Made by a program: the position numbers and the translations under genes. A stretch of DNA of 64,000 nt, from NCBI GenBank assembly GCA_964016885.1, contig OZ024741.1, positions 89,776,001-89,840,000 of the forward strand, written 5' to 3'. The notes beneath the pieces were generated by a model. The model searched no databases. It had not been told where the DNA came from and saw nothing but the letters and a program-made list of their open reading frames with translations. Positions 8,651 through 63,757 of this stretch are shown one piece after another. The DNA comes from Eledone cirrhosa. Its lineage: Eukaryota. Positions within the stretch are counted from its first letter, which is position 1. Each line of letters starts with the position of its first letter.

Positions 8651-9132
8651 TAATAAATGTAATCTGAGTTTTTCGAATATTAATAATAACATTCGATTCG
8701 TTTGTAATTACGCAAATAAGCCTCAATTTTATAGCCATGTCAGTAGAATGAACCCTTCATTCTTGCTCTTGTGTTGGCATGTGAACATGTGGCATGTGAA
8801 CATTTGGCTGATGAGTGGATCTGCTAATATGCAGATCTGACTGATCAGCCAGTCTGCTAATAGGCAAATCAGGCCGATCAGTCACTGTGTATTTTTGAAA
8901 TTAGCCTATATTTTCACTAGTTCTGACAGTTTGGCAGCTGAACAGTGATCTGTACTGATGAAGAGTGATTCCAGAAACATTAGTGTCTGCAGTTCTGTTC
9001 ACATGCCAACACAAGAGCAAGAATGAAGGATTCATTCTACTTACATGGCTATAAAATTGAGGCTTGTTTGCGTAATTGCAAACGAATCGAATGTTATTAT
9101 TAATATTCGAAAAACTCAGATTACATTTATTG
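8651..9132 (+). mobile_element. Small HHR-bearing non-autonomous element with inverted 3' arm
   Basis: 8651-8787 is the reverse complement of 8996-9132. The interior has octamer-like boxes (8829, 8862), a TATA-like box (8907) and an HHR. Confidence 0.7.
8950..8992 (+). ncRNA. Type I hammerhead ribozyme (weak stem II)
   Basis: CTGTA-CTGATGA-agagtgattcca-GAAA-CATTAGTG-TC-TGCAG: stem I CTGTA/TGCAG, stem III ACA/TGT, GUC triplet. Confidence 0.65.
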
Positions 9133-10674
9133 TATTCATCCACGTAGACCGAAAATTTTCTTTTTTATACTCACACACGCACACACACACACACATATAT
9201 ATATATATATATATATATATATATATATATATATATATATATATATATATATATATATATATATATATATATATATATATATATATGTATATATATATGT
9301 ATATATATATATATATATATATATATATATGTATATATATATATATATGTGTGTGTGTGTGTGTGAATTTCCGTTTGTATTTATCACATCTTAAAACATA
9401 ATCTTAGTCTTTTGCTGCACATTTAGTCACATCTCGCGGCACATCAGTGCGCCGCGGCGCACTGTTTGGGAATCACTGAATTAGATTATTGTCACATAGT
9501 TAAGTTGACCTCAATGACTCCATCCTAATCATAATTTAGTGAAGTTAATCCATCTCACTTCAACCACACCCATCAATAATACCACAACTTTACACAACTT
9601 AAGCACCATTAATCATTCCTGGCTATGTAGCTTTCCTTTGATATTGAAATACCAGAACGAAATTCATGAAAAATGTTTATGAGAATAAATTAATTGGTTT
9701 ACCAATCACACCACCATCGACCTATATCGGCTTCACATACTTGCATACAAACCAAAAATCCACAAATAGCATACCCCCACCCCATCTGCTCAAATATCTT
9801 CCACCGTATAACATAATCAATAACTATCACTACTAATACTATCAACAAAACCAGCAGCATCAACAACAACAACATCAATACAACCAGCAGCAACGCCAAC
9901 TAGCAACAATACGACGACGACGACCACCACTAAAATATGACTACCACCATCACTACAACTATCCAAAAGTTGGTTAACATTATTCCTTCTCCTCTCCTCA
10001 CCCTCGTCCTTCTCCAATACTATCCCAATACCTCTTTTACTTTAAACACCAACATCACACTCATTATGACTACATCCAGCACCAAACCACACATTTACTA
10101 CAACCAGTGAAACCACTGGCCGCCACCACCACCACCACCACCACCGACACTGCCGCCACCACCACCACCACCACCACCGACACTGCCGCCACCACCACCA
10201 CCATTACCGACGCCGCCGCCACCGCCGCAACTAGTAAAACCACTGGCACCATTATTGAAACCAATAACACTCTTATCACTCACTACCAACCCCACCATTG
10301 CTCCAGCAACTACCGACAACATGAACGCCTCCATTATCAGTACATCATAGCCATCACCACCATCACCACCGCCGCCGGAATGGTAAGCGCTTGCCAACCA
10401 CCATAACTCGGATATTGCGTTTCGCTTTGTTTTCGACCACTGCCGAAATACGAATCTCGCTGAAATTATATATATATATATATATATATATATATATATA
10501 TATATATATATATATATATATATACACATATCCACACACATGCAAACACATATGTTACTCTGAAGTTTCGCCTGTGTATTCACAGAGTGTTCAGAGGCGA
10601 AACTCCAGTGTAACAGAAGTCAAACCTGGCCACTGTGTGTGTGTGTGTATGTGTGTGTGTGAGAGTGTGTGAAG

Positions 10675-10990
10675 GGGCGTGGCTTAGTGGTTAGAGTGTG
10701 GTTGTGAATTCGATTCTCAGACCGGACGGTGCGTTGTGTCCTTGAGCAAGACACTTTATTTCTCGTTACACCAGTTCGGTCAGCTGGAGAAACGTGTGGC
10801 GATGTTACTGGTGCCAAGCTGTATCGCCCTTTGCTTTTTTCTTCAGACAACATCGGTGGTGTTAGGAAAGGAGGCATGCATGGATGGACAACTGTTGGTC
10901 TTCCAACAAAACACATTGCCCAGGCTTTTTCCTTAAAGGGGAGCTTTCTATGTGCAAAGCCTATGGTCATTCGTGACCGAAAGATTTTTT
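10675..10990 (+). mobile_element. tRNA-derived SINE (second family; related copy at 51805-51990)
   Basis: A-box TGGCTTAGTGG, B-box-like AATTCGATTC, core GTTGTGTCCTTGAGCAAGACACTT. Confidence 0.7.
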
Positions 10991-11022
10991 TTTTAACCTT
11001 ATATATATATATATATATATAA

Positions 11023-13097
11023 CAGTGGTGGACTGGCCAGGGTGCCAGGTTGCCCAATGGCGAGTGGGCCCCAGGGGGCCCACGGTAGCATTGCAGGGCC
11101 CACTGTAGTATTTGAGGGACCAATGTTTTGCTTTCAAAAAATACCTGAAGTCTAAGAATAAAATAAAAAAAAACAACAATTAAGCAAAGCATTTGGTCAA
11201 CCAATTCCCCAGGGAATTACTAGAAACCAAAATATACGATAGTACAAATAGCTGGAATCAGTGGTTGTACATTCTATTAAATCTAAAGCTTAGTGTATTC
11301 ATTCATGCATGCAAACATACATATGTAGACCCACACATACAAGCATATATATATATATATATATATATATATATATACTTACACACGAACTACTGACCAA
11401 ATAATATTTGGCATCAATGGGTTAAAGATATCTGTCAAATCAATGAGTGGTGAAAGTGGTGTATATACACACACACACACACACACACACACACACACCC
11501 ACCCACACACACACACACACACACACACACTTATATATATATATTGAGTGAATGTGAAAGACCAAAGGTCATTATTGAAAGTCTCTGGATTTCGCAAAGT
11601 ACATCATATTTTTCATTGTAGAAGGTAAGATATTTTCCCGAAAAAATTTGATTGCACTGTTTTGTTTCTACTTATGTATTTTTTGAAAATGTTATTAAAT
11701 TATACCATTCTATATGTAGGTGGGCCCCCGTCATCTGGCAACCAATATTTTTAGACCTAGTCCGCCACTGTATATATAGATATATATATATAAATATAAT
11801 GCCATTCATTGTAAGTTTGAATCTGACATGCAAAAACATATATATATGAATAAAGTAATCCCACATCATAGTAGATTCAAATATCACATAGAGAGAGAGA
11901 GAGAGAGAGAGGGAGAGAGAGGGAGAGAGAGAGAGAGAGGGGGGGTGAGGTACAACAGAAATGAAACATGGATTACAGGTTAAAATATAGTCTAGATAGA
12001 TGTGAAACATTAAGAAATACATGAATGTTATTTTAATAAATATTTGCTCTACGGTTCTTATATATTTGATATATATTTATCCTTATCGAGCCCTCTTTGG
12101 ATTTTAGTCTTCAAATTTATTATTATTACTATTATATATATATATATATATATATATATATATATATATATATATATATATATATGAATGAAAAATGGCA
12201 TGCTGTATATATATATATATATATAATGCCAAACATTGTAAGTTTGAATCTGACATGCAAAAACATATATATATATGAATAAAGTAAGCCCAAATGATAG
12301 TAGATTCAAATATCACAGAGAGATGGAGAGAGAGAGGGGGGTGGGGAATGAGGTACAACAGAAATGAAACATGAGTTACAGGTTAACATATAGTCTAGAT
12401 AGATGTGAAACAAAATGAGGATGTAGTTTATGGAACACCCGAATGATTTAGAAGTCGACCTTAAATAGGAGCAATAACATTAAGAAAGACATGAACGACA
12501 CCACAACACTTTGTTTTGAAAATTTTGAAAGTAGGTTTATAAGAAGGAATTTTCATAGAGTTTTCGTAGTTGCCTCTGTGGCTTAACGGTAGGTACCAGA
12601 GACGGTGGAAATCCCGGCCTTGGGTTCAAGTTTTTATTTTACAATCCATAGAAAAAAAACTGGAAAGTTTTACTGGGGACCCTACTCCCGACCAGGATCG
12701 AACTTCAGACCAGTATCTCCACCGTCGATGATTCCTCCAACTAGGCCACTGAGACGGCTACAGAAGTATAATGAAAATTGATAATTATAAACCTACTTTC
12801 AATATCAAAGTTAAAAAGGTGTGGTGTCGTTCATGACTTTCCTAGAGCTATTAGTAATATTTAGCGTCGACTTCTGGTCATTATTGAAAGTCTCTGGATT
12901 TCGCAAAATACAAATATTTTTTATTGGAGAAGGGAAGATATCTTTCCGCAAAAATTTGATTACACTGTTTTGTTTCTACTTATGTATTTTTTGAAAATGT
13001 TATTTATTCATTATAAAAATTAAAAGATAGCATTCTATATGTAGGTGGGCCCCTTCATCTCCTGGCAACCAATATTTTTAGACCCAGTCCGCCACTG
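11023..13097. mobile_element. Non-autonomous DNA transposon with internal duplications
   Basis: TIR CAGTGGTGGACTGG (11023) / CCAGTCCGCCACTG (13097), plus a second right end at 11770. 11567-11770 is repeated at 12877-13097 and ~11800-12010 at ~12225-12410. Confidence 0.65.
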
Positions 13098-62826: not shown

Positions 62827-62868
62827 ATATATATATATATATGATGTGTATGATTGTGTAAAAAAGAT

Positions 62869-63219
62869 TATATTAATAAAAGGAATTCCAACTTTGTCTG
62901 ATTTACTCGTTTTATTTACAATCCTTTAACATTTATAATGGTATTAGAATGAAATAGTATGGTAGAATATTAAATGTTAAGTGTTAATTGAACAAGTACT
63001 TTCATGCTTTCGCAATCTTCAGGTTCATAATGTGTGGTGACAGTCAAGTTTGCACACATTATGAACCTGAAGATTGCGAAAGCATGAAAGTACTTGTTCA
63101 ATTAACACTTAACATTTAATATTCTACCATACTATTTCATTCTAATACCATTATAAATGTTAAAGGATTGTAAATAAAACGAGTAAATCAGACAAAGTTG
63201 GAATTCCTTTTATTAATAT
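62869..63219. repeat. Perfect ~168-bp-arm palindrome carrying an HHR in each arm
   Basis: 62869-63036 is the reverse complement of ~63052-63219; abuts (TA)n. Confidence 0.92.
63062..63100 (+). ncRNA. Type I hammerhead ribozyme (mirror copy 62989-63027, -)
   Basis: TGAAC-CTGAAGA-t-TGC(GAAA)GCA-t-GAAA-GTAC-TT-GTTCA. Confidence 0.8.
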
Positions 63220-63623
63220 ATATATATATATATATATATATATATATATATATATATATATATATATATATATATATATATATATATATATATATATATA
63301 TATATATATATATATATATATATATATATCAGAGAGGGTGTGGTAAGATACCAGGTGGACCATAACCCACCAGAGTACTCGATACTAGTGTACTCGGTAG
63401 TAGAGTGGGTAACATGTTCGGATCTAGCTGTCGAAATGGCTGGAGCTCAGCCGTCGGAGTCCTGAATCTTTTCATATATACATATGTATATATATGATTG
63501 GAGTTGAATAATAAATAATGTACGAAATCTTCATGTAAATAAACATCTTTATAGCTTTGCTATGAAATGTTAGGAGCAGTAATTAATAACCACGAGTATT
63601 TAGCAACCAAGCAAGGGACAACA

Positions 63624-63757
63624 TTCTAATGGTGCCTTTCCTAATTTCTTAACCGGCGTCAGAGAAGCTTATTCCCTCGTGGATGGTAAGACGAAAATAA
63701 GCTAAAAGTTTATAGGTTTTATGCTTATGAACAGCGGCTGACGAAGCTAATTTGCAT
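63624..63757 (-). promoter_or_regulatory. Octamer/TCAGCCG/TATA module plus degenerate HHR
   Basis: Minus strand ATGCAAAT-tagcttcg-TCAGCCG-ctgtTCATAAG..TATAAA, then TTCT-CTGACGc..GAAA..TT-AGAA about 52 nt downstream. Confidence 0.5.

Follow-up and report, generated by a model that had tools for sequence, protein, structure and literature searches.

A 64,000-nt stretch of the Eledone cirrhosa genome (assembly GCA_964016885.1, contig OZ024741.1, forward strand, positions 89,776,001 to 89,840,000; hereafter the window) contains copies of six diverged families (A–F) of small hammerhead-ribozyme elements, which on the evidence of their homology are one clade of retrozymes. Upstream of the ribozyme, these elements carry a compact module composed of an octamer word, a TCAG-type box and a TATA-like word. 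Compared with the small nuclear RNA (snRNA) gene promoters of the same genome, the module is by its sequence a hybrid, joining the octamer word of host RNA polymerase III (Pol III) genes to a U1/U2-type box and TATA in RNA polymerase II (Pol II) spacing. The module very probably functions as a promoter, and on balance the retrozyme units may well carry an internal snRNA-type promoter that drives Pol II from a start predicted some 57 nt past the box. The elements are thus likely to switch themselves on, independently of neighboring genes. The copies in the window are as follows.

8648–9164, plus strand: family D insertion, with an inverted 5′-truncated arm (8648–8787, minus) and a main copy (8794–9164, plus), adjoining (TA)n
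8829–8861, plus strand: extra 33-nt octamer-plus-box repeat of family D, without TATA at promoter distance
8862–8912, plus strand: family D module, variant octamer, box at 8878, TATA-like word at box+27 to +29
8947–8995, plus strand: family D type I hammerhead with its core at 8955 and, in this copy, a weakened stem II, fold z −2.3
16833–17292, plus strand: family C insertion, inverted arm 16833–16926; the main copy has its module at 16979 and its hammerhead core at 17072, fold z −4.6
23787–24158, plus strand: family A variant copy with a short deletion in stem I; its module is at 23826 and its core at 23909
27972–28339, minus strand: family F relic, octamer at 28183, a deletion having taken TATA and the first half of the core; family F is old, and TATA stands at box+27 in its other members
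29182–29367, plus strand: family B 3′ fragment without module, stopping at the fixed 3′ end in (TA)n
33902–34974, plus strand: family B inverted pair, module 34618–34666, core at 34718, unit of 474 nt, fold z −5.9
34690–34692, plus strand: family B predicted start, with the predicted cut after 34748
35660–40051, both strands: family A insertion, seven 468-nt units (minus) back to back with 2.4 units (plus); octamers 36031 to 38843 (minus), 39153 and 39621 (plus)
39153–39203, plus strand: family A module, octamer word 39153–39163, box at 39169, TATA at 39195, predicted start 39225–39227
39210–39296, plus strand: family A hammerhead in long stem I, core at 39241, palindromic stem III, predicted cut after 39271, z −3.4
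40233–41321, both strands: family B inverted insertion, modules at 40664 (minus) and 40959 (plus), truncated octamer at 40791
63495–63854, minus strand: family E copy with its module at 63757 and a damaged core (CTGACGC) at 63662, fold z −1.0

The original prediction, made from this window, had quoted eight strings consisting of an octamer, 8 nt and a box, and all eight were found where it had placed them. It had also described a TATA 26–29 nt after the box in every copy but the relic at 28 kb, which was borne out except for the extra family D repeat at 8829, and a ribozyme core 46–58 nt after TATA, which failed at 23826, where a short deletion leaves 41 nt. The conserved word is really 11 nt long, ATGCAAAT(T/G/C)AG. 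In the window families, octamer-to-TATA distances were 42–45 nt and box-to-TATA distances 26–29 nt. With one mismatch at most, the module pattern matched the window 17 times against 0.01 expected, a level reached in none of 100 shuffles; since the pattern was written from the same window sites, this count speaks for non-randomness, not function. Five further exact octamers in the window (5942, 27737, 40791, 42672 and the like) had no module around them. Across the 3.0-Gb, microsatellite-rich genome, octamer-N8-TCAGCCG gave 23,694 exact matches (about 23,700 sites; none in the reversed control), and all 30 loci fetched for it were family A. A pattern search for more families, with the spacing fixed by the pattern, returned 739 matches (control, 0), and most of the 15 loci fetched from it had a recognizable, often worn core at the same distance. 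When metagenome contigs were searched with a module-plus-core pattern, none of the 27 loci had a full hammerhead on inspection. The 64-kb window had 9 clade insertion sites, as many as 400 kb of samples taken at even intervals, whereas 50 kb of flanking DNA had 0; the comparison is biased in favor of the window because the family models were built from it.

The units are non-coding tandem repeats of 332–474 nt without long terminal repeats (LTRs), across which only microsatellite-type reading frames run. DNA searches yielded at least 40 genomic relatives for each family searched (C, 79–88% identity; D, 93–95%; E, 72–81%; F, partial, 71–92%). The majority sequences of C, D and E (20 loci each) and F (19 loci) held a type I hammerhead 88–100 nt after the octamer, set in a long stem I and with a palindromic or near-palindromic stem III; the core and stems I–III were found in all of A–F. 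The family C core has T and A where the other families have C and G, which we take to be a compensatory pair. Palindromic stem III marks the dimer-acting hammerheads of Penelope-like elements (PMC6765202). The ribozyme claimed downstream of the module is thus present in the families, but the window copies at 16979 (U3-A8 type core; GAAAC missing, the GAAA being damaged) and 63757 (CTGACGC) are damaged, unlike the intact cores of the C and E majorities. An Rfam scan of the window returned mainly microsatellite-driven microRNA noise, and its hammerhead matches were all below cut-off, including those of HH9 to the family B copies at 33902–34974 (E 4.6e-4) and 40233–41321 (E 8.1e-5).

Outside the module and the ribozyme, homology connected the families in a chain (C–D, z 18.8; E–F, 16.2; A2–B, 10.3; A2–C, 9.7; D–E, 3.9), the similarity of the remaining pairs not being significant. 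The original prediction spoke of at least five different small elements; the six diverged families are homologous outside the module and are one clade, which rules out five independent promoter captures. In 1.2 Mb of fetched DNA, a descriptor scan found 108 distinct hammerhead matches, grouped in 29 clusters (reversed DNA, 1 match). Five clusters, each belonging to this clade, had an octamer 78–115 nt upstream of the hammerhead, whereas the remaining 24 had none, which rules out the module as a general hammerhead feature; the scanned DNA had been enriched for the clade by earlier searches, and several clusters are single weak matches. At least 12 other hammerhead families in the genome are without the module, some with long stems II or III. 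One hammerhead with a long stem II lies in the window at 31508, within an inverted repeat (31440–31520, minus strand), with no module upstream and with a GIY-YIG-like fragment (30321–30812, minus strand) 700 nt beyond it.

To place the module, we turned to the snRNA-type genes of the host; class-specific snRNA promoter geometry is known in insects (PMC1761439). Seven host Pol III genes (three U6, MRP, U6atac and two tRNA-Sec) shared ATG(C/G)(A/T)AAT(T/G)AG at −76 to −79 and TATA at −30/−31, with an octamer-to-TATA distance of 46–48 nt in 7/7. Octamer-bearing loci made up 3 of 17 distinct U6, 1 of 10 U6atac and 2 of 6 tRNA-Sec loci inspected; the others, which showed no promoter signs, were discarded as retrocopies or other tRNAs, the upstream DNA being visible when this decision was taken. 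Terminators of T6–T10 followed 7 of 9 host Pol III genes. The host Pol II genes (U1, U2, U4 and U5) had a TCAG-type box at −54 to −58 and an AATTA word 32–35 nt before it, each in 16/16, and a 3′ box after the coding part in 9–10 of 10. Most host Pol II snRNA genes also had a TATA-like word near −30, so that TATA is no mark of Pol III in this host. No octamer was present within 300 nt upstream of 22 U1, U2 and U5 loci. Box-to-TATA distances were 30–33 nt in Pol III genes (9/9), the box register of the octamer-bearing genes being set at oct+16, where 6/7 have CCT, and 22–30 nt, mostly 24–28, in Pol II genes (17 of 19 scored). Single candidate genes were 7SK (L282), RNase P (L249), MRP (L070) and U12 (L283). 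In the U6 array, which has a period of about 1.8 kb (L003–L020), some units had their promoter replaced by a common short repeat (L007, L008, L010–L013).

The module shares its octamer word, box and TATA-like word with these host Pol III (U6, U6atac, MRP, tRNA-Sec, 7SK, RNase P) and Pol II (U1, U2, U4, U5, U12, U3) promoters. A matrix of the host Pol III octamer ranked the element octamer first in 5/5 units (15.6–18.7 bits; 0/300 shuffles each), the best score in host Pol II upstream DNA being 8.4. A host Pol II box-to-TATA matrix ranked oct+16 first in families C, D and E (13, 0 and 2 of 300 shuffles); at the family D site at 8862 it gave rank 1 of 436, with 0/300 shuffles. The original prediction of an snRNA-type module was supported in that the octamer and box words both match the host's own snRNA gene promoters, the box ranking first in C, D and E. 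The combination differs from the host: among U1–U6, U6atac, U12, MRP, RNase P, 7SK and tRNA-Sec, no gene joined octamer, TCAG box and short spacing, and a host gene of the same hybrid layout as the source was rejected within that set (U7, U11, U4atac, SRP, vault and Y genes lay outside the search).

The box-to-TATA distance was 25–29 nt in 20 of 22 element representatives from about ten families, a regularity that is circular for the families found with the spacing-fixed pattern (G–J), though not for A–F, and in which TATA positions in AT-rich DNA can slide by 2 nt. Genome sites on the forward strand, dominated by family A, numbered 10,368 with TATA at box+25 to +29 versus 56 at box+31 to +34; reverse counts would double some sites. 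C|A was found at box+56 to +58 in 15/22 representatives (background mean 4.5, maximum 11) and at the predicted start in 6/10 families (background maximum 4). This predicted start lies 38–58 nt before the cut, inside the extended stem I, in agreement with the predicted start at or just before stem I. An snRNA 3′ box was found in 0/6 units, as expected for a read-through element. The spacing, the C|A and the missing 3′ box together fit a U1/U2-like Pol II reading better than the "U6-type, type 3 Pol III" promoter originally proposed, which is not supported as stated, as the box-to-TATA distance is in the host Pol II range and host U1, U2, U4 and U5 genes have TATA too.

The octamer and box could instead be mere activator or factor-binding sites, or act at the RNA level, with transcription starting elsewhere in the unit. 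The additional octamer-plus-box repeats of family D, which have no TATA of their own, would suit this explanation, as would the outer stem I, which begins 5–15 nt before the predicted start and places upstream DNA under RNA-level constraint too. We nevertheless regard it as very improbable, since box, TATA and C|A stand at host promoter distances and a cut-to-cut monomer accounts for the outer stem. Another explanation, which also seems improbable, if somewhat less so, is that the module is an inherited relic of a captured promoter and that present copies are read passively by host read-through. Mean identity between families was 0.93 in the octamer and 0.55 in the box against 0.28–0.33 in the flanks, the families having been chosen by the module itself; this agrees with the predicted conservation of the module over neighboring DNA and speaks against a relic, as do the spacing held at 25–29 nt across about ten families and the octamer plus box tripled as a unit in family D, whose majority has three such repeats with a 33-nt period. 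On the other hand, shared ancestry could account for a common module without any function, the module is missing from at least 12 other hammerhead clusters in the genome, family B is still spreading despite a poor box, and read-through has been proposed in a review (PMC7761336).

A search at long spacing exposed unrelated-looking loci with octamer, CCAGTT and TATA at box+31. Family K (L355–L395) is old, its members being 66–78% identical to the query, and its majority sequence carries a complete hammerhead 27 nt downstream of a U6-like start. Its octamer-to-TATA distance was 47 nt in seven, 49 in three and 42 in one of the 11 members (of 32 aligned) that keep both words, and it has a purine at oct+77, like U6. 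The bodies of family K resemble B (z 4.0) and E (z 4.4), not A or C; K likely belongs to the clade, which suggests a spacing switch within the clade, the direction of change being unrooted. Old hammerhead families (K, L342 and L351) have exact host Pol III spacing, and the 3′ strand of their stem I contains a T5 run; should Pol III read these families, the RNA would be about 75 nt, little more than the ribozyme. One possible scenario, which we put forward only tentatively, is that the clade captured a whole U6-type promoter and switched polymerase through a box-to-TATA distance shorter by about 4 nt and a retuned box, after which the Pol III-spaced branch would have decayed and the Pol II-spaced branches expanded to tens of thousands of self-transcribing copies.

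The insertions of the clade are tandem or inverted, tailed and targeted to microsatellites, in the manner of non-autonomous Penelope-like elements, whose marks are partial tandems, an inverted 5′-truncated arm, a tail at one end and a microsatellite target (Craig et al. 2021, PMC8557442). Inverted 5′-truncated arms were frequent. Family A ends (n = 38) fell 36–38 nt (17) or 93–97 nt (16) before the next octamer, and family B ends at −40/−41 and −114/−118 (5/5); ends in C and E, both older families, were more scattered. Ends ran into (TA)n or (CA)n in 31/38 (A), 5/5 (B) and 30/37 (D) cases. The family A insertion at 35660–40051 has both ends in (TA)n and units 99–100% identical, its seven tandem units being 99.7% identical; elsewhere in the genome, a family A array (L288–L292) repeats at a higher order, every four units (1,713 nt). 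Of 36 family D 5′ ends, 7 lay within 10 nt of the cut (126–137, cut 127; p 5e-5, or 3.5e-4 after dropping one of a paired insertion). Copying from cut RNA would produce such ends, and stalling at stem I is an alternative cause; other families had only single 5′ ends near the cut. Promoterless cut-to-end copies also exist in family D. One family D copy stands head to head with a U6atac retrocopy (L213:1257–1640), and many U6 and U6atac retrocopies likewise lie in (TA)n, suggestive of a shared machinery.

A candidate source of the copying enzyme lies in the window itself:

814–2141, plus strand: 3′ part of an autonomous Neptune-like Penelope element that has a hammerhead of its own (1950) but no module

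Upstream of that hammerhead are a GCGCATGCGC-like word at 1855 and a AAGATGGCG word at 1890, which we take to be sites of NRF1 and YY1 type; the autonomous element may be transcribed from an mRNA-type promoter, unlike the retrozymes with their snRNA-type one. The element has 128 scored genomic copies, and a family copy (L423) has a 1005-aa frame with reverse transcriptase motifs, a CxxxxCxxC linker and a GIY-YIG-like end. The label "Neptune-like" follows from this linker, and the Penelope label from motifs judged by eye against PMC8557442; Pfam gave no match to the Penelope-like frames of the window and L423. The element also ends at two points, 58–60 nt apart (14 short, 13 long and 3 broken; n = 30), nearly all on (TA)n, and the octamer word was present upstream of it in 0/30 stretches. 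Retrozyme families compared with this one autonomous family gave z below 1 in five cases and 3.6 in C, which is AT-rich. A second Penelope-like element lies within 44150–50420 (frames 45390–47012 and 47000–47416, minus strand) amid nested inverted pieces, and the same stretch holds a hammerhead of another family without the module (44154, plus strand).

Several observations weigh against the Pol II explanation. The octamer is confined to host Pol III genes, and the TCAG box occurs in 7SK and RNase P (at −63 and −66, without octamer and with T8–T9 terminators), so that the box itself is not Pol II-specific. The predicted PSE (proximal sequence element) is host-like in C, D and E, as described above, but the box of family A, the largest family, is weak (rank 4 of 468, reached by 283/300 shuffles and, in the box-to-TATA ranking, by 288/300), and CCACTAC of family B does not score as a host box (rank 38 of 474) and ranks 70th under the box-to-TATA matrix. 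By eye, the AATTA word was not evident 32–35 nt before the box in B, C, D and E; family A2 has ATTAA at box−31. The spacing carries the circularity and sliding noted above and, given the Pol III spacing of family K, may be tolerant. Many long 3′ ends fall inside or just past a T-run, as expected for a Pol III product, and the link between the retrozymes and the Neptune-like element consists of a short word only.

Several of these points would favor a type 3 Pol III promoter that starts near stem I and mostly stops at a T-run, leaky read-through yielding the promoter-bearing templates. T-runs of 4–6 stand between ribozyme and next promoter in all six units, and runs of 4–7, several weaker than the host T6–T10, lie 40–65 nt before the octamer in A, B, C and D, where the long 3′ ends fall; the promoterless family D copies and the U6-like distance (47 nt) and purine of family K are also in keeping with Pol III. 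Against it, the window families have 42–45 nt from octamer to TATA versus 46–48 in the seven host genes, and their box-to-TATA distances do not overlap those of nine host Pol III genes in a regular-expression count. Units A, D and E have only T4 after the start, as opposed to the T6–T10 terminators of the host, and family C has T4 58 nt after it; the ends of family E are not at T-runs, and seven near-identical tandem units need a promoter-containing template. Taken together, Pol III transcription of this kind seems rather unlikely.

If Pol II is the enzyme, the elements could work as follows. An snRNA promoter factor on the box and a POU protein on the adjacent octamer would recruit Pol II; with no 3′ box, and Pol II being blind to T-runs, the transcript would cross the next unit's promoter into the next ribozyme. 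Two cuts would then free a promoter-containing monomer able to circularize, of which the family D ends at the cut may be one genomic trace. As the insertion marks suggest, a Penelope-like reverse transcriptase/endonuclease would prime at AT-rich points and write tandem and inverted arms into (TA)n, each new array thereby being able to transcribe itself. A promoter-containing monomer as template would explain both how an upstream-type promoter survives retrotransposition and the seven 99.7% identical units in one insertion. Given the older Pol III-spaced branch, the clade would have used both geometries.

Two known hammerhead repeats have promoters of their own: newt satellite 2, for which Coats, Zhang and Epstein reportedly described in 1994 an octamer plus PSE in one vertebrate family tested in oocytes, and the schistosome SM-alpha repeats, whose promoter is said to have tRNA-type internal boxes. 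The snRNA promoter of newt satellite 2 is read by Pol II (PMC2220036, PMC6765202). Like that repeat, the present clade has a hammerhead and a predicted internal snRNA-type promoter; it differs in that about ten diverged families, of two spacing classes, share an invertebrate-type genome, and in having a TATA-like element and, at 8 nt from the box, an octamer that in the host is specific to Pol III genes. The SM-alpha repeats similarly have a promoter upstream of the hammerhead that is kept by tandem arrangement, but theirs is Pol III SINE-like (short interspersed element-like) and not an upstream snRNA-type module (PMC6765202). Neptune- and Nematis-type Penelope-like elements share the insertion marks and a hammerhead near the 3′ end, whereas the present clade has no open reading frame and a tail of 56–75 nt versus their 30–40 (PMC8557442).

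The closest relatives are non-LTR retrozymes, circular RNAs that are probably mobilized by Penelope-like elements (Cervera and de la Pena 2020, PMC7229834), as Li et al. 2026 (10.64898/2026.07.22.740005) likewise hold for metazoan retrozymes in a paper whose main text has no match for "promoter"; according to de la Pena et al. 2020 (PMC7761336), retrozymes seem to be without promoters or conserved motifs. The present clade resembles them in its short non-coding tandem units with one type I hammerhead each, long self-pairing around the cut, dispersed monomers and arrays, and Penelope-like elements as the proposed mobilizer. It differs in its module matching host snRNA promoters, the published ones having no described promoter, and in fixed double 3′ ends in (TA)n that match a resident Penelope-like element; circular RNA is part of the published class and a prediction for the present clade. 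An undescribed promoter–ribozyme mobile RNA system, as originally suggested, is thus too broad a claim: the retrozyme class, its Penelope link and the newt precedent are known, and what appears new is the snRNA-type module in retrozymes. Literature searches, with subscription papers and repeat databases outside their scope, turned up no description of a module like this in invertebrate retrozymes; coral, mussel and axolotl retrozymes lay outside the comparison and may bear on novelty.

It is an open question by what means retrozymes, which are protein-free, become abundant as RNA in all tissues; PMC7761336 assumes passive read-through because no promoter was seen. A host-like module at tens of thousands of sites makes retrozyme transcription directly testable, with one start, three motifs and one spacer. 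A functional module would link the newt case, so far isolated, to a general strategy. It would also illustrate how a mobile RNA can take along a promoter that is normally external, and provide rules (octamer at −77, spacing classes) for promoters to express small RNAs in this lineage. If the switch of polymerase proposed above is true, metazoan retrozymes would be self-promoted like newt satellite 2, and the snRNA promoter variants of this genome would form a natural library from which to read how spacing determines polymerase choice.

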